Shown here in pieces: positions 1 to 14,153 of a stretch of 18,952 bases of DNA. This DNA comes from Adineta ricciae. Lineage: Eukaryota. Position numbers and translations under genes: made by a program. Numbering within the stretch: position 1 is the first letter of the stretch; every line of letters starts with the position of its first letter. The DNA lies in assembly GCA_905250025.1 (NCBI GenBank), contig CAJNOJ010000333.1, forward strand, positions 27,220 through 46,171. The letters run 5' to 3'. The notes under the pieces are model-generated. The model searched no databases. It was given only the letters and a program-made list of their open reading frames with translations, and had not been told where the DNA came from.

Positions 1-3000
1 GTATAACACGAATCCGTGAAATATTACATAATCAATTAGGATCAAAATTATTATTACGTGTAAAGAAATAAGATTTTAAAACAAAAAGAAGGGAAAAAAA
101 AATGAATTTCTAAAATTTTTAGTCATTATTTAATCATCGTATTGATACACAAATACTTGATGAAAATGTATGTCAATTAATTGAATCAATTTGGTTAGAA
201 TCAATTGGTGATTTGAATAAAATTTTAAGTATAAAACCTGAATTATTTAATCTTAAAACGGTATTTACAAAAATATTTCTATAAATTTATGATTTAAAAT
301 TATTAAATAGATTATTGAAGCTGAAGCGGCATTACTTGAACTCAAATTAACTAATAATCCTGATGTTGCAGATCGTTTTTATTCATTAATACCACATCGA
401 TCACAATATCATATTGATCTTATTAAAAATCGTCGAATATTAATTGAAAAACTCGACTTGTGTCAAGTAAAATGATTTTTTTGAAAAATTTCTTTTCTTT
501 TTTTTATTTCTCTTCTCTTATTGAGATGCTTCGAGATATGTTAACAGTTAATGAACTAACTAATTGGAATGTAAAAGCATCAATTGAAGCAAAATATCGA
601 TCATTAAAATGTCATATTGAAACAATGTCAAATTCAACATCTGAATTTCAGAATATTTTTAATTTTATTCAATCATCTACAAATAGGTGAACAAATTCTA
701 CATAAACAATTTTATGATTATTTATTATTATTATAGGAATGAACAAATTATTATTCATAATATATTCAATGTTGTTAAACAAACAGATACTCTCAATTTT
801 TCTACAACATTATCCAATCAACAACAACTTTTTCATGGATCGAAATATTCAAATTTTCTTGGAATTCTTTCACGGTAAAGTATTTATTTAATTTTTAGAA
901 AAGATTTTTATACAACAAATTATATATATTTAGAGGTTTAGCAATGCCAAAAATGGTAATTGAAGAATTCGGTATTGATCGTACTGATATTGGTTGTCTT
1001 GGACATGGTATTTACTTTTCTAATTCTGCTTCAACATCTTTAAAATATACAACAGAAAGTACAATACGATCAGGTCGTCGTTTATTATGTATTTGTCAAG
1101 TAGCACTTGGTGAATCAGCTGATTATTATTCATTTTCACCAACACTTATCAAACCTCCTCATGGTTTTCATAGTACACATGGAATTAAACAAACTGAAGA
1201 TAATCATTCAATATTTAATGTAAGTTTCAATTAAACAATAAAAATTCAATTTAATAAGATTTTCTAAATATAATGATATAATTATATAGGATGATGAATA
1301 TGTTATTTATCAACTTGATCAACAACGTTTACTTTATATTGTAGAAGTTTCATGGATATTAAAAAATGAATTGAATATTGAATTAGAACGATTATCAATT
1401 ATTCATGATAAAGAAAATTTATTTAAAAAAAATGAAATTCCTACAATATTAATTGATGATGATAAAATCATTGAAATAGCTGAACAAGATTATGGTTTAA
1501 TATGTCCATCAACAGGAAAACTTATTCCACTTAAATCATTTCATATTCGTGCTCAAATTATCGATACTACAGTTGAAGTAATTTTATCGATTTTTCTATT
1601 CAATTAATTTATCATATTTATATTTTATTTTAAAAAAAAACAAAGGTTGTTCTTTATCAAGTTTATCAAAATACAAGTTCAATTCCAATTGAAGCTAAAT
1701 ATGTATTTCCTCTTGATGAAAATTCAATTGTTTGTGGTTTTGAAGCACATATTAATAATCAAATTATCAAAGGTATTGTTAAAGAAAAAGAACAAGCTAA
1801 ACAAGAATATAAACAAGCAATTGAAAAAGGTTATGGTGCTTATTTAATGCATCAAGAAGAAGCACAAGTATTTAGTGTTGCTGTTGGAAATTTACCAGCT
1901 CATAATGAAGTTATTATCAAAATAACTTATGTTGCAGAATTAGAAATTGAAAATAATGATATTATTTTTCGTTTTCCAGCTAAAATGGCTTTATGGCAAT
2001 CGAAAAAAGCGATTGAAAGCAAAGATCAATCAATTTTACAATCAATTAGTATTATCGATGAAAAAATTCAATTTAGTTTGAAAGTATCAATTCGAATGCC
2101 ATATAAAATATTAAAATTATTTTCACCAACACATCGTCTTCGTCGAAAATTAACTGATTGTATTGCTATGATTGAACTTGTTGATAAAATTTTATTTGAT
2201 CAAGATTTTATTCTTTCAATAACACTTAATAATCCTAATTTACCTCGAATATCAAATGAAATATCAAATAATGAGGATTCTCAAGTATCTATGCTTACTT
2301 TTTATCCACAATTTCAAACATTAATCAATTCAAACGAACAAATTGAAATTATTTTCATTGTTGATGTATCAAATTCAATGGATAACAGTCAGATACAACA
2401 AGCTAAACAATTAATTCATTTGTTTCTTATGAATTTGAAAGTTGATGATGAAAAAACATATTTTAATATCATTTTTTTTGGATCAGGTAAGAAAATACAA
2501 TTCTATAATGTTATTTTATTATCGAATAATTATCAATATTCATTTAGATAATGATGAATGTTTTCCTATATCAATGTTAACAACGAAAGAAAATCTGGAT
2601 AAAGCCAAATATTTTGTTCTAGTAACGATAATTTATCATTTTAATTGAATTTTTTATGTATTGAAATTTTAGCATTCACCTGTTTATCGTGGTAGTACAA
2701 ATCTATTTGCTGTTTTTCATCGTTATTCATTATTACCATCAACATTATCATCAAATTTTGGTCGTCAATTTATTTTATTATCTGATGGACATATTCATGA
2801 TCTTAATTCAATTCTTATTTTATTTAAACATCAATCAACTATGCAACATGATCGTTTATTTACATGTTCAATTGGTAATATTGCAAATAAACATAATTTA
2901 AAACAATTAACAAATGAAGCAAATGGAGGTGGTTTATTAACAATATTTGATTCAAATTATCGATCAAAATGGAAAATAAAAGTATTAAATATTCTTGATA

Positions 3001-3830
3001 AGATACAACAACCATGTATTACAAATATATCAATTGATTGGAATGGTTCTTTGAATAAAGAACAAAAGTTTCATATACAAGCACCAAAAATGATTCGTTC
3101 TTTATTTAATGGAATGCGACTTACTGTTTATCGATTCATAGAAAATTGTCATAAGGCAACATTAACAGCTATTATAAATGGACAAGAATTTGTTACAACT
3201 GTATTTAATAGTCCAATAACAAATACCAAAGGAAATATTTTACATTGTTTAACAACACGAGCGATCATTAATGATTATGACAATGGTCTATGGAATGTAG
3301 ATGAAAGTGAAAATGAATTGATTAAAATTCAATATAAACGAGATCTTATTGATCTTAGTATTAAACATTGTGTTATTAGTCCATATACAAGTTTTGTTGC
3401 CATCGAAGAACGTAATATTGAAATCAATCAAAATCATTTATCTTCTATTAGAAATGTTCGTTTACTTGATATTATGTTTGAACGAGATAATGATTTATTA
3501 CCATATATGAGTTGGGATGGTGATATATCAAATTTAACTTTAATCAAACAAAAATTAATCGATGCACGTATTTTACTTCAATGTGCATCGTTTCAGAGCA
3601 AAAAGGAAACAATTGTTGATATTGAAAAACTTTGTCAAAAAATTTCCTATCGAACAGGTGGAGATGAAAAATTCAATACAATGATGACTATCATACGTAC
3701 ATATCGTTATTCATTGAGTGAATATGATCAAGCAGATGAAATTGAAGAAAAAATGCGACATGGTATGTCATTCGATTTATTAATAATATTTATTTATTTA
3801 ATCGAAAAAATGAATAGATATAATCATTGA
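1..3830 (+). CDS. PARP4 / vault poly(ADP-ribose) polymerase-like protein (PARP regulatory + catalytic + VIT + vWA domains). Multi-exon; 5' end outside the window.
   Basis: Hand-spliced model: join(<1..59,123..260,311..466,526..686,737..874,934..1219,1290..1577,1646..2486,2548..2621,2673..3830). All introns are 50-70 bp GT-AG, and phases are consistent with the ORF-track frames. Peptides read from the sequence: regulatory helical domain '...RFYSLIPH...'; catalytic domain 'QQLFHGSKYSNFLGILSRGLAMPK...GIYFSNSASTSLKYT...DDEYVIYQLDQQRLLYIVEV' (the H/Y/E catalytic triad positions are present); VIT domain 'LIPLKSFHIRAQIIDTTVE|VVLYQVYQNTSSIPIEAKYVFPLDENSIVCGFEAHINNQIIKGIVKEKEQAKQEYKQAIEKGYGAYL...VGNLPAHNEVIIKITYV'; vWA domain with MIDAS 'IIFIVDVSNSMDNS', 'GSTNLFAV' and 'FILLSDGHI'. 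Alternative 3' end: a canonical ATG|GTATGT donor at 3769/3770 could splice to 3849..3917 instead of reading through to the stop at 3828..3830. Confidence 0.85.
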
Positions 3831-4082
3831 AATGATTAATGCAACAGCAGAAGAACGACAAATATTGGAAGAACAATGTTTCGCGAATAATTTTATAATC
3901 TCAAACGATCAATTGTAAATCAAAGACAAATCTTTTTCAAAAAAACAAATCAGAATTCGTTTATCTTGTAGTAAATCATTGGCTGAACATAATTCCACAG
4001 ACTTTTCAATTGCAAATAATACTAAAATAAGTGTACGTGAATGAAACTATAAGACGAATTCTTCTATATATAAATACTCTAG

Positions 4083-4593
4083 GCTGATCAATTGACTGAA
4101 GAACAAATAGCTGAATTTAAAGAAGCATTTTTTCTATTTGATAAACATGGTGATGGTACAATTACAACAAAACAATTAGGTACTGTAATGCGTAGTCTTG
4201 GTCATAATCCAACTGAAATTGAATTACAAAATATGATTGATGAAGTTGCTGCTGATGGTAAGATTTTAATCAATCAAATTTCATTTGATTCATTGTTTTT
4301 TTTTGTATTGTTAGGTAATGGTACAATTGATTTTCCTGAATTTTTAACAATGATGGTACGGAAAATGAAAGATACTGATTCAGAAGAAGAAATTCGCGAA
4401 GCATTCAATGTTTTTGATAAGAATGGTAATGGAATTATATCAATTGACGAATTTCGGTAATGAAAGAAAGATAAACATGCAAATTTATTTATTCTGTTTC
4501 TTCTTTTTTAAAGTCATGTTATGACAAATTTGGGTGAAAAACTTACCGATGAAGAACTTGATGAAATAGTTCGTGAAGCAGATGTTAATGGAG
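4083..4593 (+). CDS. Calmodulin-like EF-hand domain (exons 2-4 of the CaM-Hsp70SBD gene). Classic metazoan CaM gene structure, with the Met codon on a separate upstream exon.
   Basis: Exons 4083..4257, 4315..4456 and 4514..4593, with 57-bp introns (GTAAGA..TTAG, GTAATG..AAAG). Translation: [58 protein letters not shown]|[48 protein letters not shown]|[27 protein letters not shown]. Long stretches are identical to animal calmodulin. EF-hand loop positions are substituted: EF1 position 3 D->H, EF2 position 1 D->A, EF3 position 3 D->N, and EF4 is degenerate. Candidate Met-only exon 1: an ATG at 3767..3769 immediately followed by GTATGT. This is uncertain because it lies inside the PARP4-like last exon. 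Confidence 0.88.
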
Positions 4594-6405
4594 GTATACA
4601 TTTTTTTTTGTAACCAAAACCTACTGAAATTAATGTTAATACATGTTATGTTATGATTTGAGGTGTCGATTTGACAGTTTTATTTGGTTCGTCTAATCAT
4701 GCAGCTGATAAATCTGTATCGACTTCTGATAAGTCAAAATCATACGAACGATCTGAGAACATAGAAATATCTCCAAACATCTTATCATTTGATGCGGATA
4801 AAAGAGAAGAAAATCTGCAAGTTTCTGCAAATGAATCGAAAAATTCACTTTCAGCCAGTTCAGTATGTAAATTCTGCATGGAACTTTTTTAAATAAAAAT
4901 ATGATTGACTTTTAGATACAACATTATAAAGATGATATAATAACATTAACATGTAAAAATGTTGAATCAAAATTCAATATTTGTGATCTATTACTTCTCG
5001 ATGTTTGTCCACTTAGTCTTGGTATTGAAGATATTTATGGTAATATGCATATACTTATTCATCGTAATACAACGATTCCAGTACAAACACAATTTTATCA
5101 AATATTTACAAATGCTTATGCTTATCAAACATCAGTTAATATTCGTATATTTGAAGGTGAACATAAACTTACAAAATATAATGTATGTAATATTAAAACT
5201 TAAGAAACTTTTTGAATACAATTGTCTCTATTATAGATGTTTTTGGATGAATTTAGTCTTTTTGGTTTAACAAATAATTTTTTTGATCAAATACTTAAAA
5301 TAGGTGTTCGTATGAATATTGATGTCAATGGAATACTTCATGTTGATGTTGAAGAAACTTGTTCAGGAGCAAAAGCATTATTTATTCTTTCTTCTGATAA
5401 ACCAAGTTCGATAATTATTTTATATGTTCATAATGTTATCATTGAATATTATTTATATTTATATAGGAATGAGCAAAGAAGATATTGAAAAACATATTAC
5501 ATTTGTAGAAAGTTGTACAAATTTTATAGTTGATGATGATGATAAATCCAATGATTCATTATATCCGGTTTGTATTAGTTTATTTATATTTAATATAAAG
5601 TTTAACATTTCACTTTGTTTTTATCTTTTCTCAGCTCGATGGTCAAATTACAAATATACCACATAATTTTTCTGACAAATTGGATCCTTCATTTGGTAAT
5701 TTATTTTTATTTGCTATTTTATTGTAATGATATATGAATTTAGATCAAAAAGTTAAAATAACATTTCTTCGAAAAATGAAAGATATTCAATCTACAACAA
5801 GAATCATTGAAGAATTGCTAAAACTTCAATCTGAAGTAGAAATTTCCTTAAATATATAACTTATTTTCTATTTTATTCGAATATATAGGATGGAACATTT
5901 ATATTGAATCCAAATTTAGCTAATGTGTTTCATATTGATCCTAATAATTTAAATCATATTGAAATCTATTTATATAAACAAGGTTTTAATTTACTTGGTA
6001 AGATTCAAATGATTTATTTCATAAATATAAATTTTTATATTATTTTAAGCTTTAAATATTCAAAATGAAATTTATCGTTTAATTGGTACGGGTATCATTC
6101 TTCTTTGGTTTATACTTCAATTACCATCTCTACATCAGTATACAAACCAATTTTTATCTAACATTGACGAAATTAAAGTAAATTGAATTCTTTTTCGATC
6201 TTTTGTTTTTCTTTAAATCTTTAAGATTGATCTTTGCAACTTTTTTCCTGATAATATAATTGAACATATTAACAAAGCGATTGAATTCTATCGACAAACA
6301 AGTCAATGTAATGATATTTATTGTAAACAATTGGGATTGGATGATTCATCATGGAATATGTTTATTCAACGTATATTTATCGGACTTAACAATATTAATC
6401 ACTAA
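4083..6405 (+). CDS. Chimeric gene model: calmodulin-like N-terminus, acidic Ser/Lys-rich linker, Hsp70 substrate-binding domain (beta-sandwich + helical lid), and a C-terminal extension with one hydrophobic helix. No Hsp70 nucleotide-binding domain.
   Basis: Proposed join(4083..4257,4315..4456,4514..4593,4663..4862,4916..5182,5237..5405,5467..5567,5635..5695,5744..5835,5889..5997,6050..6177,6226..6405). The critical junctions stay in frame. CaM exon 4 (phase 1) joins the linker exon 4663..4862 ([67 protein letters not shown]). That exon has a canonical donor TCA|GTATGT at 4863 and a TTTTAG acceptor at 4915, and joins the Hsp70 SBD exon in phase 0. Weak points: the donor GTAGAA at 5836 (alternative stop at 5857..5859) and the choice of acceptor at 4663 versus 4678. 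Confidence 0.55.
4916..5567 (+). CDS. Hsp70-family substrate-binding domain (SBD-beta) exons
   Basis: Exons 4916..5182, 5237..5405 and 5467..5567. Translation: [89 protein letters not shown]|[56 protein letters not shown]|[34 protein letters not shown]. This matches the Hsp70 interdomain linker plus SBD signature (canonical ...[84 protein letters not shown]...ITITNDKGRLSKEEIE). It is divergent but unmistakable. Confidence 0.85.
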
Positions 6406-6847
6406 CCGATCATTATAATTGATTTCATTTCTTTTTAAGTTTGAATTACATTAAGAGTAACTCTCATATTTCTCGTTTTTAGATCAAAGGTTTAAATGTG
6501 AGTGTAAGGTGAAGATTAAGTCATCAATGTGTTATCTAAAAACGTTTTTACTCAGTAAGTTCTGTCCATAAAACCTATTCTATTTGATAGAAAATTAAAT
6601 TCTAAAACGAATGGACTAGATTTTATAGACTAGATAGGAACTCTTTAGTAAAATAGTTTTAATCTAAAATATCGTTTCATCAGATTAACTTCACACTGAT
6701 AACGAAAGCTTATGACGTAGATGTTCGTCACCAACAAGAGAATCTACTCACTTTTTCTGACATTTTGTCAACATACCTTTATAATTTTGATACGAAGAAT
6801 GAGACAAATAGTGGTCTTCATCATTTTTCTTATATCTTTCTTAAAAA

Positions 6848-7618
6848 ATGAAACAAATCTTTATGATATTTTTAATTATCATCTTGAATATAAAGAAGAA
6901 TGAATTGAAATGTCTTCAAGCTTGGAATGGAAGTGGAACAGGTGCATGGTATCGTGTAGATACTATTTGTAATTCTTCATTTATCTCAACAGAACTCATT
7001 AATTGTTTACCAACAATTATTTTACCTTTAAATTTAACGGAATTTACTGATGGATTCTATATTAGTTTAGGAGTTTTCAATCGTTTTAATGGAGTTTCGC
7101 TAGATATTGGTTTAACATTTGATTTGGAGAAAAATCGTTGGTTTTCTTACGGAAATGATCGATTAGGATGGAAATCCGGAAGTATTTCAATTGATTCCAA
7201 TGAAAATCGTTGTATTAATGTTTCTTTAAGTATTTTTAATGATTATATTCATTATATTATTCGAAACTCTAATGGTTCAATTATCTTAGGTGAAGATAAA
7301 TTTTATTCATTTCAAATTGATCCTCTATTAAATTTAACAAAAAATAATTCTGATTCATTTGGATTTTATCGTTTTGATAGTATTGCTCAAAGTAAAGAAA
7401 CATTGAAAAGTGGTTCTCAACTTATTCATGCGCAAATGTTCAATTGGACGGTTAAGTTTTCTTCAGGAGAAATTCTTCCAGCTAATGAATATAATATTGC
7501 TAAAAATATTAGTGGTTATTCACCAGGTATATGTTGTTCTAATCAAGAAATAAAAACAATTGAAATTCATCAACAAATCAAATGGAATCAATCGGATATA
7601 TCAATTCGTTATATTTAA
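6848..7618 (+). CDS. Secreted, heavily N-glycosylated protein of unknown family (single exon, 256 aa)
   Basis: ATG at 6848 and an uninterrupted 771-nt ORF. N-terminus MKQIFMIFLIIILNI is signal-peptide-like. There are about 13 N-x-S/T sequons and several Cys. I recognise no conserved domain. It is convergent with the Kelch gene, with 106 bp between the stops. Confidence 0.5.
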   Translation: MKQIFMIFLIIILNIKKNELKCLQAWNGSGTGAWYRVDTICNSSFISTELINCLPTIILPLNLTEFTDGFYISLGVFNRFNGVSLDIGLTFDLEKNRWFSYGNDRLGWKSGSISIDSNENRCINVSLSIFNDYIHYIIRNSNGSIILGEDKFYSFQIDPLLNLTKNNSDSFGFYRFDSIAQSKETLKSGSQLIHAQMFNWTVKFSSGEILPANEYNIAKNISGYSPGICCSNQEIKTIEIHQQIKWNQSDISIRYI

Positions 7619-7724
7619 TAATCAAAATACTTCAAATTTCTAAATTTTATGAAATGATTTTATTTTCAATATTTTGAATTCAATGAAAAAAATTACAATA
7701 TTTAGATTTTCGAATAAAATGTTG

Positions 7725-9392
7725 TCAATATAATTCATTTGTATTCAGAGAAACATTTCCATTTGATCCACTTGCAACTAATATAGTACCATCAAATAAA
7801 AGTGATGCGGTATGAGAATGTCGTATAGTACTCATATTCGATAGTATTGTCCAATTATTTGTTGATGGATCGTATAATTCAGCACTATTGAGATAAACAT
7901 TATTTTGACTTTGTCCACCTGTTACTAAAATTGTTCCATCCAATAAAACAGTCGCTGTATGAAAGTATCGCGCAGTTGTCATACTCGATGTTGTTATCCA
8001 ACTATTTGTTGAAGGATTATATAATTCAGCACTGTTCAGAGAATTACTGTTACCATAACCACCAATAACTAACACTTTTCCATTTTGTAGAAGAGATGCG
8101 GTATGAGAATATCGTGCAACAGTCATATTCGCCATTGTTGTCCAATTTCCTGTAGATGGATTATATAATTCAACACTATACAGAGGTGCATTATTATTAT
8201 ATCCACCTGCAACTAAGACTGTTCCGTTAAGTAAAACTGATGCAGTATGTCTAAATCTTGCAGAATTCATATTTCCTGTAGTTGACCAAGTGTTTATCGA
8301 TGGATCATACAATTCAGCACTGTTGACATAACCACTATTAGCAGAACCACCTGCAACTAATACTTTTCCGTTTTGTAAGAGTGATGCTGTGTGGTAGTAT
8401 CGTGTGATACTCATATTTCTCGTTGTTGTCCAATTACCTGTAGATAGATTGAATAATTCTACGCTATTCAGAGAAGCAACACTATTTTGTCCACCTGTTA
8501 TTAGTACTATCCCAGTTAATAAGAGTGATGAAGTGTGGTAACATCGAGTAGTTTTCATATTCCCTGTTATTGACCATATATTAGTAGATGGATCATACAG
8601 TTCAGCACTGTTAAGAAAAGCGTTATCATTCTGTCCACCAACAACTAATACTGATCCATTCGATAAAACTGATGCAGTATGTTTATTTCGGGCAATATTC
8701 AAGTTTTTCATCGTTGTCCATCCTAAAGAGTCAAAAAGTAAAAATCAGGTAAATTTACTCAATTAAAACTGTCAAATGTTGAAAGATAAATCGAAGTATT
8801 TCAATTACTAGACGATATTTTTCATTTATAAGAGAAGAGAGTTCATTATGCATTGATAAATATATAACATCAACATAATTACTATTTATCTTTTTCGTGA
8901 GGATTTTTCAAAATAGAAGAACGACAAGTAGTGAAATAATTATTTTAATTTTGCCTTACCTTTCAGTGATGCAGTTGTTGTGGATGTTGATTCTATAATT
9001 TGAGAGAATATCATAAAGAAAAACGAAGATTATTTTGCTTTTTCAAAATCTCGTTAAAATTCATTAAACTTACCATGTGTTGAGATTATTGTTACAATAA
9101 TCGATGTTCGATTAAGAAATACCATTGTAACATTCGAATAAGATTCAATTGTCAATGAATTATTATTTAAATTGAACAATTGGCACGTTTCATTTGAATT
9201 AAAATAATTCATAAGAGATATTGAATTGTTATTTAAATTAATCATTTGACAAATACATTCATCAAATGTTTTATTGAAAAAGATCTGATTTTCAGTACCA
9301 ATATATGTGTAGTCATATACTATTCCAATAGCAATCGTATGAATTGTAGGTATATAGAGTAGAATCAGGTTTAAAAAAATCACGTCTGTCAT
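7725..9392 (-). CDS. Secreted Kelch-repeat protein (7-blade beta-propeller) with an N-terminal signal peptide and a Cys/N-glycan-rich region
   Basis: Model: join(complement 9074..9392, complement 7725..8722). Exon 1 (MTDVIFLNLILLYIPTIHTIAIGIV...IISTHG) ends at a CATG|GTAAGT donor in phase 1. The acceptor TTTAG at 8723 then gives G-WTTMKNLNIARNKHTASVLSNGSVLVVGGQ... Seven tandem ~48-aa Kelch units follow (consensus AELYDPSTN.W..T.NM...R..HTASLL.NG.VLV.GG). An optional in-frame 33-nt micro-exon (complement 8960..8992, ESTSTTTASLK) is flanked by AG and GTAAGG and is also phase 1 to phase 1. Confidence 0.78.
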
Positions 9393-10160
9393 TCTACGAG
9401 TGTTTCTGGAGGAAATTTCAACTGATTTATATAGGAGGTTTTTTTCTATGCAACAGTTTCATCTAATTATTTTCCATTTAGAAGAGAAAAAGAGAGACAA
9501 AAGAAAACAAGGACCTCAGCATCTTTTGTTGAGTTATTGTCAAACAAAAATGCTATGAAACTATATTGTTATACATGAAATACAATTATCTTTATCTACC
9601 ATCATTGATTAACGAATGTTTGTTTATAGAATTTTTCCAAACGCGTTACACAACCTCGATATTCATAATTTTTCATGCAATTGAGTGCATATAATTAATA
9701 CGATGCAAACCTTTCCTTGATGAGAGTGCAAATGTTGGAAAAAAAGAAGAAAAAAATGTTGATATCAATAAGAATATAATTTATCAAAAAGAAGTAATTA
9801 TGATATCTTGTTCGATTTGAGAACTCATTTTGTTCTAAAAGATTTTTGTTAGTACCAAAAGAAAAATATTTGTTTAGTTTTTTTTCTCCATTGTAATAAT
9901 CAAAGTGCATGTTATAAAATGAAAGATAAAGAAGAAAATAATGCATTATCAGAACAATTGATAAGAAAAAAATGAGAAACTTTACTTATTTTACCTCATC
10001 ATTTTGAAAATAGAAGATCAGAAATGAAAACACATTCATCTTCAATAAATAGTTTGAATAAAAACGGAATTCCAGTAAATTAATAAGAGAAATTTTCTCT
10101 TAAACTGAACTTTTTCTCTTTTTTCTTTAAAAGATAAGTGTTATACCATCAGGATCACCT
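9393..10160. promoter_or_regulatory. Divergent (bidirectional) intergenic region between the Kelch gene (minus, ATG at 9392) and the permease gene (plus, ATG at 10161)
   Basis: 768 bp with no convincing ORF; A/T-rich and homopolymer-rich. Function is inferred from gene orientation only. Confidence 0.3.
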
Positions 10161-12101
10161 ATGAATGTCAATGATGAAACATCTGTTAATGATGTTCAAT
10201 TCAATCAAAATTTCTCTCAGGTAATAATCTTTTATTTTATTTTCATTATGACAAATGAGTTTTCATTTAGAGAAGATTTCTTAAAAAATTAATTCCAAAT
10301 TTTTTGCGAAAAAATTCTTCATCTGAAGATGTTGATAATCCATATGCAAATGAATATGCTGATACTGAAGTTTTAGTTCATGGAGAAAAAGTTGATTTAC
10401 ATCGAAATTTACAAGAACGACATATGATCATGATTGCATTAGGTGGAACGATTGGAACGGGATTATTTTTAGCATCTGGACAAGCTTTAGCATCGGCTGG
10501 ACCTGGTGGCTCTTTAGTATCTTATTTAATCATTTCTGTTATGGTTTATTTCGTTATGACGAGTTTAGGTAAAATTATTTGATTTCTTCAATGAAAAAGA
10601 CTTTTATGTTTTTTTTTAAAGCTGAATTAGCAACACAATATCCGATAAGTGGTTCATTTAATACATTTGGAAGTCGATTTGTTGATGAAGCTTTTGGATT
10701 TGCATTAGCATACAATTATTATTTTTCTTGGGTAACAACGATCGCAGGTGAATTAGTTGCTGCTGGTCTCATTGTTCAATATTGGTTGCCACATTTTCCT
10801 TCAATTATTTGGTCAATCCTGGGAATGTTAGTTATGTTTTTATTAAATGCATTTACAGTCAAAGGTTATGGTGAAGCTGAATATTGGTTTGCAATGATTA
10901 AGGTCATAACTGTACTCATATTTCTACTTGTTGGTGTTCTTGTTGATTCGGGTGCTATTGGAAAACCAAGAGAAACAATTGGTTTTAAGAATTGGAAAAT
11001 TGAAGGTGCACCTTTTGTTGGAGGAGTTGCTGGTGTTATTACAACATCAATTATATCTGGTTTTGCTTTTCAAGTACGAAGAATTTCGGTTTTTTTTCTC
11101 AAATATAATCTTCTATCGAATATATATAGGGAACAGAAGCAGTTGGAATTGCAGCTGGTGAAAGCTCCAATCCGAAAAAAGATGTTCCACGTGCAATGAA
11201 TGGAACAATTTGGCGTATTATTTTATTTTTTGTTGGTGCTATTTTTATTATGGGTTTAATTATTCCATATAATGATAAAAAATTAAGTCAAATTAATGGT
11301 GTTGACAGTATCGCTGTTTCCCCATTTACATTAGTATTTAGTCTATCGGGTATTCCAGGAGCTGATCATATTATGAATGTTGTTATTTTAACAACAATCT
11401 TATCAGCTGGTAATTCAGGTCTTTATTTATGTACAAGAATATTTTGGACTTTAGCAAATGAAGGCAAAGCACCGAAAATCTTTCGTCGTTTAACAAAAGG
11501 TGGAATACCAATTTATTGTTTAATTTTAACAACCGTTTTAGCAACTTCTTTATTTGGTTTATCATTTGTTGGAAATCAAGTTATTTACATTTGGTTAGTT
11601 AATATGACGAGTGTTATGGGTTTCATTGCTTGGTTTGGAATCGCTATTGCACATTGGAGATTTCGTCGAGCATTTCTCGCACAAGGTTATTCATTGAATG
11701 ATTTGGTTTATAAAGCGTTATTCTTTCCTGTTGGACCATTTTTGGCATCGCTACTTATTTTACTTTGTGTTTTTGGACAAGGTTATTCAGCATTTACACA
11801 AAAAACTTTTAATTGTACTCAGTTACATGAAGAAGAAACTTATCTTTTTGAATTCAATAATCAATATTTAATCGATAGCGGAAATTCAACAACGTGTACA
11901 AAAACAGTCTTTAATGTTCAAACATTTTTATCTGGTTATGTGATCTTACCAATCCTTGTTATTATGTTTTTCGTTTATAAATATGTTAAGAAAACGAAAT
12001 TTATTCCACTTAAAGATATTGATTTGCTTACTGATAGTGTTATGGAACGTGACCGTTTGAAACGAGAAAGAATACAACAATTACAACAAACAGACGCTTA
12101 A
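10161..12101 (+). CDS. Amino-acid permease of the APC superfamily, AAT/YAT family (LysP / Can1 / Gap1-like), about 593 aa, four exons
   Basis: Model: join(10161..10220,10271..10568,10622..11073,11130..12101), with introns of 50, 53 and 56 bp. Translation: MNVNDETSVNDVQFNQNFSQ|RRFLKKLIPNFLRKNSSSEDVDNPYANEYADTEVLVHGEKVDLHRNLQERHMIMIALGGTIGTGLFLASGQALASAGPGGSLVSYLIISVMVYFVMTSL(A)ELATQYPISGSFNTFGSRFVDEAFGFALAYNYYFSWVTTIAGELVAAG...GYGEAEYWFAMIKVITVLIFLLVGV...GFAFQ|GTEAVGIAAGESSNPKKDVPRAMNGTIWRIILFFVGAIF...MNVVILTTILSAGNSGLYLCTRIFWTLANEGKAPKIF..LTKGGIPIY...FIAWFGIAIAHWRFRRAF... These are all hallmark AAT/YAT motifs. A C-terminal loop insertion carries N-glycosylation sequons and Cys. AATAAA signals lie at 12136 and 12147. 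Confidence 0.85.
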
Positions 12102-12594: not shown

Positions 12595-14153
12595 TTATGA
12601 ATTACTAGTAGATGATTCTATTGTATGTTTCATGTGTATGTCATTATTCTTTTGTATTTGCTCAATAGTATATGGTTTGTCTGGAATAATGACACTATCA
12701 GATGGAATTAGCCTATATATATATCAAAAGTAGATATTGTATGAATATATAAAAATTAATTTTTACCTCGTTATATTACCGGAATATTCTCCCCAACAAA
12801 ATTCAATTAAAGGATTAAATCCTTCCCATTTATTATTATTTAGTACAGTTGGCTCATATGAATACATTGCATATATATTACACATTTCATCATCATGTCT
12901 TTGTCTAATTTTCCCAAATAAAATCTATTCTTTTGTATATAAAATTATTCGATCTTACCCGATGTTAATAATTCTATCATCATTGTTATCATAAACACAT
13001 TGACCAATAATAAAATCATTCTTTTCAATTTGTATAGATGATGAAAGTGGATAAAATGATTGAGGCCATTGTGGATTACTTTTACCAATCTGTAAAATAG
13101 TTTTATTTCGTACTCGATATATTGAAGATACCCTTCCTATGACAATAAATAGTTTCAATGATCTTCCATAAATATATACAAAAAAATCGAACCCCATTGA
13201 TGTGTATGATAGTGAAGAGCAAATATGGATATTGTAGGTCCAAGATAACGACATGAAAAGGGTGTTCGAATATCTAGAGAATTCAATTTGAGTAGGATAA
13301 AAGATACGTAAAAACCTTGTTCGAGTACCTTGTGTTCTTGGTGGTAAAGTGATATTCGATGTACCAGCTAAAAACATTCCTGCATGATACTTTCGCCTAT
13401 AAGATAAAAATGAAATCTTATCTAGAAAAAGGTGGTAACGGTATTTGAAATTATTTATTACATCTTTCGAGTAAAAAGAATTTGGATACCAGAATTATCA
13501 TTGGTAATAATTGGTAAATAATGAATATTCATTACAAGATATTTATATGATGTATTATGACCAACAACAAAACCAGTATCTTAATAGAATAACATTATGA
13601 TTTTTCTTTCTTATCTAGTGAAAAACACCTTTAGGTAATGCTAATGAAGATCCATTTCTTGACCAATCATAAATAATCATTTGTTTATTTCTGCATGCTG
13701 TTCCATCAAACCTATAAAAATAATTTTACTGTTTAATTTTTAAAGTCAAATTATTAAATAATACCAAATAGATTCATTAGATGTGGGAGTAACGCAAGCC
13801 AATGTGAGTATATGATGAGCTGTATTCATATTAACCAATGGTTTAAAATCAACTTCAGTTTTTGAAAGTAAATCATTTTCTCGATAAGTAAAATTTCAAA
13901 CTTACTAATCATCAATTTTTCATCAGGTAATTTATATTGGATATATACTTGTTGATCTCCCTAAAGATGTCAAGAATTATTTTTATAATCGTCGTTTTAT
14001 AATCATATTTACTTCTTTTGTTGTCACATTCTTCATAGTAAAATTAAAAGTGAAATTATCTTCATTATCATAAATATCTTGCGAATGAATGGATTTGATG
14101 TTAATAAGAAGAAAAATCAAAATATTTTGAATGACTAATATTTCTATATTCAT
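12595..14153 (-). CDS. Peptidylglycine alpha-hydroxylating monooxygenase / dopamine beta-hydroxylase-like protein (copper type II ascorbate-dependent monooxygenase fold). Secreted. The CuM His pair is absent.
   Basis: Model on the minus strand: exons 14013..14153 (MNIEILVIQNILIFLLINIKSIHSQ..., signal peptide), 13906..13960, 13765..13852, 13629..13711, 13462..13579, 12959..13396, 12780..12904, and a terminal exon at 12595..12680 (alternative acceptor 12694). Introns are 49-65 bp except the last, which is ~99 bp. All are GT-AG with consistent phases. Alignable with PHM: 'QVYIQYKLPDEKLMIIDFKPLVNMNTAHHILTLACVTPTSNESIW|FDGTACRNKQMIIYDWSRNGSSLALPK|DTGFVVGHNTSYKYLVMNIHYLP...|MRKYHAGMFLAG...SIYRVRNKTILQIGKSNPQWPQSFYP...GQCVYDNN...|GQRHDDEMCNIYAMY...'. 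The 26-nt intron alternative at exon 2/3 was rejected in favour of a 53-bp intron that restores the IDFKP alignment. The last exon is low confidence. Confidence 0.78.

Follow-up and report, generated by a model that had tools for sequence, protein, structure and literature searches.

A truncated calmodulin-derived domain within a PARP4-like gene from Adineta ricciae, a bdelloid rotifer

The locus and its host gene

The sequence analyzed here (the window) is an 18,952-nt stretch of Adineta ricciae contig CAJNOJ010000333.1 (positions 27,220-46,171, forward strand), and all coordinates are given within it. A. ricciae is a bdelloid rotifer and a metazoan. The subject is a calmodulin (CaM)-derived block starting at position 4083, which an earlier note, made from the sequence, had described as a recent duplicate of animal CaM with altered Ca2+ ligands in all four EF-hands and a scaffold retained for target binding. 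The block was found to be an internal part of a gene for a PARP4-like protein. The window is AT-rich (GC 23-36%), and its introns are short, about 50-70 nt, with GT-AG ends. Positions 1271-10786 match a public A. ricciae contig at 99.979% identity over 9516 bases, with an identical encoded protein; this argues weakly against read errors, as the public contig may not be an independent assembly.

All parts of the host gene lie on the + strand. In a manual GT-AG model, 15 exons at 2673-6405 join into one open frame with all splice sites intact, and homologous exons run upstream of 2673 to the window edge (tblastn of Rotaria homologues). The start of the gene lies left of the window, with tblastn matches of the Rotaria proteins P0004 and P0018 beginning at about residue 248 of each. 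The spliced 983-aa model was found in a homologue search to match public protein CAF1574739.1 (P0001), a 1390-aa "unnamed protein product, partial" of A. ricciae, with 100% identity and 100% coverage.

The 5' part of the gene, at 1-1586, holds PARP regulatory and catalytic exons identified by tblastn of Rotaria homologues and by Pfam; the homologous blocks are at 3-263, 332-469, 478-672, 741-875, 932-1216, and 1290-1586. The Pfam PARP match (E=7e-11) is at 899-1231, and the H-Y-E triad can be read in the translation (H-G-S, GIYF, and DDEYVIY). Downstream on the same strand, 1634-3762 encodes VIT, VWA, and a conserved post-VWA region (Pfam, tblastn, and the 100% match to CAF1574739.1), with exons at about 1643-2485 and 2529/2673-3762 and Pfam matches to VIT (E=3e-31) and VWA (E=2e-6) spanning 1634-2548. 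Two small exons (3818-3914 and 3972-4032) then lead into the CaM block in phase 0 (...ANNTKIS/ADQLTEEQ). After the CaM block and a linker exon come three exons for an Hsp70 substrate-binding beta domain (4916-5182, 5237-5405, and 5467-5567). The Pfam HSP70 match (E=1.3e-24) is limited to profile positions 376-516 of 599, so that the ATPase domain is absent and the protein is not an Hsp70 chaperone proper.

The C-terminal tail is encoded by exons at 5635-5695, 5744-5835, 5889-5997, 6050-6177, and 6226-6405, with the stop codon at 6403-6405, and is homologous to the MINT domain of human PARP4. Against the PDB, human PARP4 residues 1575-1702 were the sole phmmer match to the tail (E=0.015), and a profile built from eight tails matched human PARP4 residues 1574-1694 with E=1.3e-7. 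PARP4_MVP-ID was not found in the tail in a local Pfam scan, and precomputed matches to PF26156 in homologues are graded weak or faint. The tail profile also weakly matches (E=0.058) residues 737-825 of PDB chain 9e5c_4s, at the C-terminal end of an 842-aa protein that is part of a solved structure and bears the name "VWFA domain-containing protein". PF00533 (BRCT) is present in some Rotaria homologues; the 5' end of the A. ricciae gene is outside the window. In human PARP4, MINT comprises residues 1562-1724 and anchors the protein to the major vault protein (MVP) inside the vault (PMC12280208), and Adineta vaga expresses a major vault protein (PMC10809525).

The order of the encoded parts is thus PARP catalytic domain, VIT, VWA, CaM(1-132), disordered linker, Hsp70 substrate-binding beta domain, and MVP-binding tail. 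With a PARP catalytic domain followed by VIT and VWA and with a MINT-like tail at the C-terminus, the host is, by its domain content, a PARP4 (vault PARP)-like gene.

Exons and calcium loops of the calmodulin block

Human CaM searched against the window by tblastn gave a single collinear match, in which CaM residues 2-133 correspond to 4083-4592 (E=3e-65) with two introns. Exon 1 (4083-4257) runs from Ala1 to the first base of the Gly59 codon and encodes EF1 and the start of EF2. It is followed by a phase-1 GT-AG intron in the Gly59 codon (4258-4314), by exon 2 (4315-4456, Gly59 to Arg106, completing EF2 and containing EF3 in full), by a phase-2 GT-AG intron in the Arg106 codon (4457-4513), and by exon 3 (4514-4593, Arg106 to Gly132 and the opening base of the following Gly codon). 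Exon 3 supplies helix G and, of the EF4 loop, residues 1-4 (DVNG, 4581-4592), where the CaM-derived sequence ends. The block has 397 nt, a number not divisible by 3, so skipping of its exons would shift the downstream frame.

Together, the three exons encode CaM residues 1-132 with 20 differences from human CaM (84.8% identity). Six of the seven Met residues in this range are kept (only M124I is changed), as are all Phe residues. The isolated module matches Pfam EF-hand_7 (E=1e-26) and EF-hand_1 (E=1.7e-25) and belongs to the EF-hand/CaM-like superfamily. It is not calmodulin proper, which is a free protein of about 149 aa with four canonical loops and a complete C-lobe including helix H and Met144/145. 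A stand-alone CaM gene or pseudogene was considered and ruled out, as the window holds no start or C-terminal exon for one and both flanks of the block are in frame.

The EF1 loop (4140-4175) carries D22H at loop position 3 (codon 4146-4148) and E31Q at the bidentate position 12 (codon 4173-4175). In EF2, position 1 is changed by D56A (codon 4248-4250), and in the EF3 loop (4416-4451) position 3 is changed by D95N (codon 4422-4424). When the loops were checked with the PROSITE PS00018 EF-hand pattern, written as a regular expression, all four loops of human CaM passed and only EF3 of the A. ricciae module did. Scored on the alignment to human CaM, ligand positions 1, 3, 5, and 12 are changed at 5 of 14 sites, compared with 15 of 118 elsewhere in the module, a modest enrichment (one-sided Fisher p=0.039).

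Laboratory CaM12 and CaM1234 constructs serve to abolish Ca2+ binding. D56A is among their substitutions (PMC9988260), and E31Q is known as "B1Q", with the B12Q protein (E31Q and E67Q) described as incapable of N-lobe Ca2+ binding (PMC3387242).

The incomplete fourth EF-hand

Exon 3 is followed by a phase-1 intron at 4594-4662, read from the sequence, and by a linker exon at 4663-4862 that ends in ...SASS. This exon is not CaM-derived; its product is rich in Ser, Lys, and Glu and is predicted to be disordered, and it aligns weakly (E=0.05) with the linker LELAAPFDSSDH of the Rotaria sordida homologue rather than with CaM. The peptide VDLTVLF had been considered as a degenerate exit helix of EF4, a reading dropped because of this alignment with the downstream R. 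sordida linker. Neither an exon for the CaM C-terminus QVNYEEFVQMMTAK nor an ATG (start) exon of CaM was found anywhere in the window.

The homologues of A. vaga and R. sordida keep a further exon after ...DIDG, encoding GSEDGRLTESDFLKLILKS or GNEKERLTESNFLKLLSKS, which is probably a degenerate remnant of DGQVNYEEFVQMMTAK. No counterpart of this exon (GSEDGRLTESDFLKLILKS in A. vaga) was found in the window. The A. ricciae EF4 thus appears to be a half-loop spliced onto an apparent linker after loss of the EF4-remnant exon. In R. sordida, the remnant exon (GNEKERLTESNFLKLLSKS...) is present twice, at 11202-11321 and 11754-11873 of locus L003, about 550 bp apart, and the public R. sordida gene model omits both this exon and the first CaM exons.

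An AlphaFold2 model from the CaM module to the C-terminus, made with a 12-sequence alignment, had a mean predicted local distance difference test (pLDDT) score of 48.6 and a predicted template modeling score of 0.24, with pLDDT at 55-73 in the module and below 35 in the linker. This low-confidence model suggests helices A-G and a disordered linker and is too poor for a fold search or for domain contacts.

These results bear on the residue-level claims of the earlier note. All six of its quoted CaM peptides are present in the spliced translation, and the scaffold is of animal CaM type. Its ligand changes in EF1 (D22H) and EF2 (D56A) are borne out by the alignment, which adds E31Q in EF1, a change that it had missed. 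Its D95N in EF3 is real; the loss of that site is not supported, as the loop stays within PS00018. The absence of Gly6 and Glu12 from EF4 reflects a loop that is incomplete, not mutated, as the exon ends after DVNG and the remaining residues come from the exon starting at 4663. Canonical ligands are therefore not intact, and ligand residues have been hit as the note described; that all four hands are knocked out is an overstatement, given that EF3 is within the consensus.

Occurrence and origin in bdelloids

The CaM insertion is shared by A. vaga, R. sordida, Rotaria sp. Silwood1 and Silwood2, R. magnacalcarata, and Didymodactylos carnosus, and the order of VWA region, CaM, Hsp70 substrate-binding domain, and tail recurs in R. 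sordida and on a chromosome-scale contig of A. vaga. The PARP4-like family is expanded to many copies in bdelloids. A further search with the module and its flanks was dominated by tandem-CaM proteins and gained one extra Rotaria fragment. The loops that pass PS00018 differ among the copies: EF1-3 in Rotaria sp. Silwood2, EF1 and EF2 only in A. vaga and R. sordida, and EF3 only in A. ricciae. A paralogue in A. ricciae (P0003, at locus L002 on contig CAJNOR010001013.1) has VIT, VWA, the Hsp70 substrate-binding domain, and the tail, with a long acidic and Ser-rich linker in place of the CaM exons; its synonymous divergence (dS) from the window gene is about 1. The Rotaria protein P0022 is likewise without the module.

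The A. ricciae copy has the intron before Ala1 in common with the A. vaga and Rotaria copies but not with Didymodactylos, where it is absent, and it has the Gly59 and Arg106 introns in common with A. vaga, R. sordida, and Rotaria sp. Silwood2. A phase-1 intron at Gly33 is present in all other bdelloid copies examined (L001 5718-5955, L003 9500-9735, L005 14196-14431, L006, and L007) and has been lost from the A. ricciae copy (4083-4257). The intron positions after the initiator Met and in Gly59 presumably match those of animal CaM genes such as human CALM. Since the block retains introns, a retrogene origin was ruled out in favor of capture of a genomic CaM copy. In the proposed course of events, such a copy would have been spliced with its introns into the host gene via the intron after the CaM ATG, before Adineta, Rotaria, and Didymodactylos diverged.

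Between Adineta and Rotaria, the introns of the CaM block are similar enough to align (window 4258-4314 and 4457-4513, L001 5815-5877, L003 9597-9657, and L005 14293-14353), with 55 of 61 positions of the Gly33 intron identical between A. vaga and R. sordida, and synonymous divergence between the genera is only 0.15-0.57. This surprisingly shallow divergence, which is uncalibrated, may reflect a slow neutral rate, exchange between lineages, or another cause.

Selection on the module

Nei-Gojobori estimates were made on the 132 CaM codons of four sequences, with an ancestor reconstructed by parsimony. Between the A. ricciae copy and the three others, dS was 0.40-0.57, non-synonymous divergence (dN) was 0.09-0.13, and their ratio (omega) was 0.22-0.27. 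The VIT/VWA exons of the same genes gave omega values of 0.19-0.29 with similar dS. On the A. ricciae branch, parsimony placed 24 changes of each kind, synonymous and non-synonymous (omega 0.25), and neutrality, under which a ratio of about 1:4 is expected, was rejected (binomial p=4e-6).

With an omega of 0.25 and a rate like that of the host exons, the module is, as judged from these substitutions, constrained like the rest of the protein, that is, a maintained scaffold and not a relic. Retention of the scaffold, as put forward in the earlier note, thus agrees with the purifying selection seen on the A. ricciae branch. The same note was right to expect a metazoan host; its recent duplicate gives way to an internal domain of a PARP4-like protein. 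The insertion is common to A. vaga, Rotaria, and Didymodactylos and shows the same level of synonymous divergence as the other exons of the host gene. The likeness to animal CaM is a matter of origin and moderate constraint, not of recency.

Interpretation and alternative explanations

The explanation that we consider rather probable is that the block is a CaM-derived internal domain of a bdelloid PARP4-like protein that serves as a constitutive, largely Ca2+-independent binding or structural module. The N-lobe is predicted to be dead, site I through D22H together with E31Q and site II through D56A. Site IV is gone, with the second half of the loop, helix H, and the early linker missing, and site III alone keeps a consensus loop, without its EF4 partner, where weak Ca2+ binding is possible. 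The module could then act as a binding or structural element, with the Hsp70 peptide-binding domain as its neighbor and the vault anchor a short way downstream. The loss of Ca2+ binding, the binding function, and the association with vaults are what we infer from the sequence. Several points speak against this explanation. With EF3 intact, some Ca2+ response is possible, and the C-lobe, deprived of EF4 and helix H, may fold differently from that of CaM. Which sites are lost varies from copy to copy, and this also fits a general relaxation of constraint on Ca2+ binding. At least some members of the family can dispense with the module, as the A. ricciae paralogue without it indicates. A regular-expression search of the whole host protein gave no IQ-type motif for CaM binding, and the selection estimates come from a small set of sequences and a parsimony ancestor.

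A constitutive module has to be weighed against an altered Ca2+ sensor, in which EF3, perhaps in a pair with the degenerate remainder of EF4 or with a different region of the protein, would provide a low-affinity, non-cooperative switch on PARP activity or partner binding. EF3 fully fits PS00018, and there are functional EF-hands with Asn at loop position 3, such as site III of yeast Cmd1. The orthologue of Rotaria sp. Silwood2 has three consensus loops, and the ancestral domain was probably Ca2+-sensing. EF-hands work in pairs, however, and here the partner loop and its exiting helix are missing; both N-lobe sites carry substitutions used in experimental Ca2+-site mutants, and other species lose EF3 instead, so that no site is consistently preserved. 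A sensor of this kind is possible but doubtful. Slightly less likely still is a vestigial domain, the leftover of an old fusion without a function of its own, eroding copy by copy. It would account for the differing losses (EF3 only is kept in A. ricciae, and EF1 and EF2 only in A. vaga and R. sordida), for the deletion of half of EF4 and helix H in the A. ricciae copy, for the paralogue and the Rotaria protein without the module, and for an omega of 0.25, as the value expected for canonical CaM is far lower. It is at odds with the rejection of neutrality at that same omega, with a rate equal to that of the clearly functional VIT/VWA exons, with the intact frame and splice sites, and with the kept hydrophobic core and Met residues.

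The gene model was built from the DNA sequence. An artefact of annotation or assembly was also considered, as was a separate small CaM-like gene or pseudogene lying between two unrelated genes. Annotators have struggled with this locus, several Rotaria gene models ending at ...DIDGG or omitting parts of the block, and retention of the intron at 4594-4662 would bring in a stop after GGIHFFL. Against this, the phases fit on both flanks and the whole 15-exon frame is open, the chromosome-scale contig of A. vaga shows the same domain order, as does R. sordida, and the window contains neither an ATG exon nor a CaM C-terminal exon. In protists, proteins with VIT, VWA, CaM, and the tail are encoded by single uninterrupted open reading frames (ORFs), and the protein encoded on the public A. 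ricciae contig is identical. An artefact or nested gene is accordingly very improbable, and the tethered, largely Ca2+-independent module is preferred.

Neighboring genes and guest modules in other VIT-VWA proteins

The genes adjoining the PARP4-like gene are ordinary. They comprise an ORF of 256 aa whose N-terminus is hydrophobic and which has no Pfam match (6848-7618, + strand), a six-blade Kelch-repeat protein (7725-8711, - strand), an amino-acid permease spread over several exons (10304-12101, + strand), and a C-terminal fragment of a copper type II monooxygenase (12955-13377, - strand).

VIT-VWA (VWA5A/PARP4-like) proteins of protists and molluscs also carry guest modules between VWA and the MINT-like tail, in the same slot that holds CaM and the Hsp70 substrate-binding domain in the rotifer gene; these modules are copies of abundant, ultra-conserved proteins of the host. 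The guests are CaM (full in P0054 and P0113, partial in P0150), ubiquitin (P0148 and P0242), histone H3 (P0135, where the module is C-terminal, and P0217), and the synaptobrevin SNARE motif (P0215, P0246, and, below the Pfam cut-off, P0138). P0054 and P0217 are encoded by single uninterrupted ORFs on their contigs (guest loci include L008 and L009), so these two are not gene-model fusions. No description of guest modules in VIT-VWA proteins was found in the papers searched. It is conceivable, though unlikely, that proteins with VIT, VWA, and a MINT-like tail are a general display scaffold whose guests act as tethered baits, decoys, or vault cargo adaptors. If so, the guests could bait proteins that recognize these hub proteins, for example pathogen effectors or toxins, and a bait would need no Ca2+ binding, which would explain a kept surface and core with drifting Ca2+ ligands. 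The guests and the rotifer fusion together suggest a testable idea on what vault-associated proteins of the PARP4/VWA5A type recruit.

Relation to known proteins

Canonical animal CaM (CALM1-3 and Drosophila Cam) shares with the module helices A-G, the Met and Phe hydrophobics (M124I excepted), and the central-helix sequence. The module differs in being internal instead of a free protein of 149 aa and in lacking residues 133-148, that is, half of EF4, helix H, and Met144/145. Myosin essential light chains, the CaM-like domain of alpha-actinin, and site IV of yeast Cmd1 have lost Ca2+ binding and kept target binding. They have in common with the A. ricciae module the CaM fold, degenerate loops, and a binding or structural role, which for the module is a proposed one. 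They are full four-EF-hand proteins or domains with known partners, whereas in the A. ricciae module one EF-hand is half deleted. Domains of this degenerate type are well known, and the bdelloid fusion proteins are public but unnamed. In the calcium-dependent protein kinases (CDPKs) of plants and apicomplexans, a CaM-like domain is in cis with an enzyme, and its functional EF-hands act on an adjacent autoinhibitory helix. A CaM-derived domain fused to a catalytic protein is the shared feature; the A. ricciae module has lost most sites, and its host protein showed neither a junction nor an IQ-type motif.

Among engineered proteins, the module shares D56A at site II with CaM12 (D20A/D56A) (PMC9988260) and E31Q at site I with B12Q (E31Q/E67Q) (PMC3387242), and it resembles an N-lobe Ca2+-dead CaM. 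In contrast to these mutants, it is natural, adds D22H, has a truncated C-lobe, and is tethered in a protein of more than 1400 aa. Human PARP4 has the same PARP catalytic domain with H-Y-E, VIT, VWA, and MINT-like tail; between VWA and MINT it has a long disordered region (PMC12280208), where the bdelloid proteins have CaM(1-132) and the Hsp70 substrate-binding beta domain. No description of a CaM or Hsp70 substrate-binding domain insertion in PARP4-like proteins, or of CaM fused to a bdelloid PARP, was found in literature searches. Bdelloids have numerous PARP genes; desiccation and radiation induce many of them and also a major vault protein (PMC10809525). Taken by themselves, the loop substitutions are ordinary; what is unusual is a CaM fragment with an Hsp70 peptide-binding domain inside a vault-PARP-like enzyme, conserved across bdelloids. 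With three, two, and one consensus sites in the orthologues, these proteins form a natural series of tethered CaM domains that could be used to test the role of a Ca2+-free CaM scaffold.

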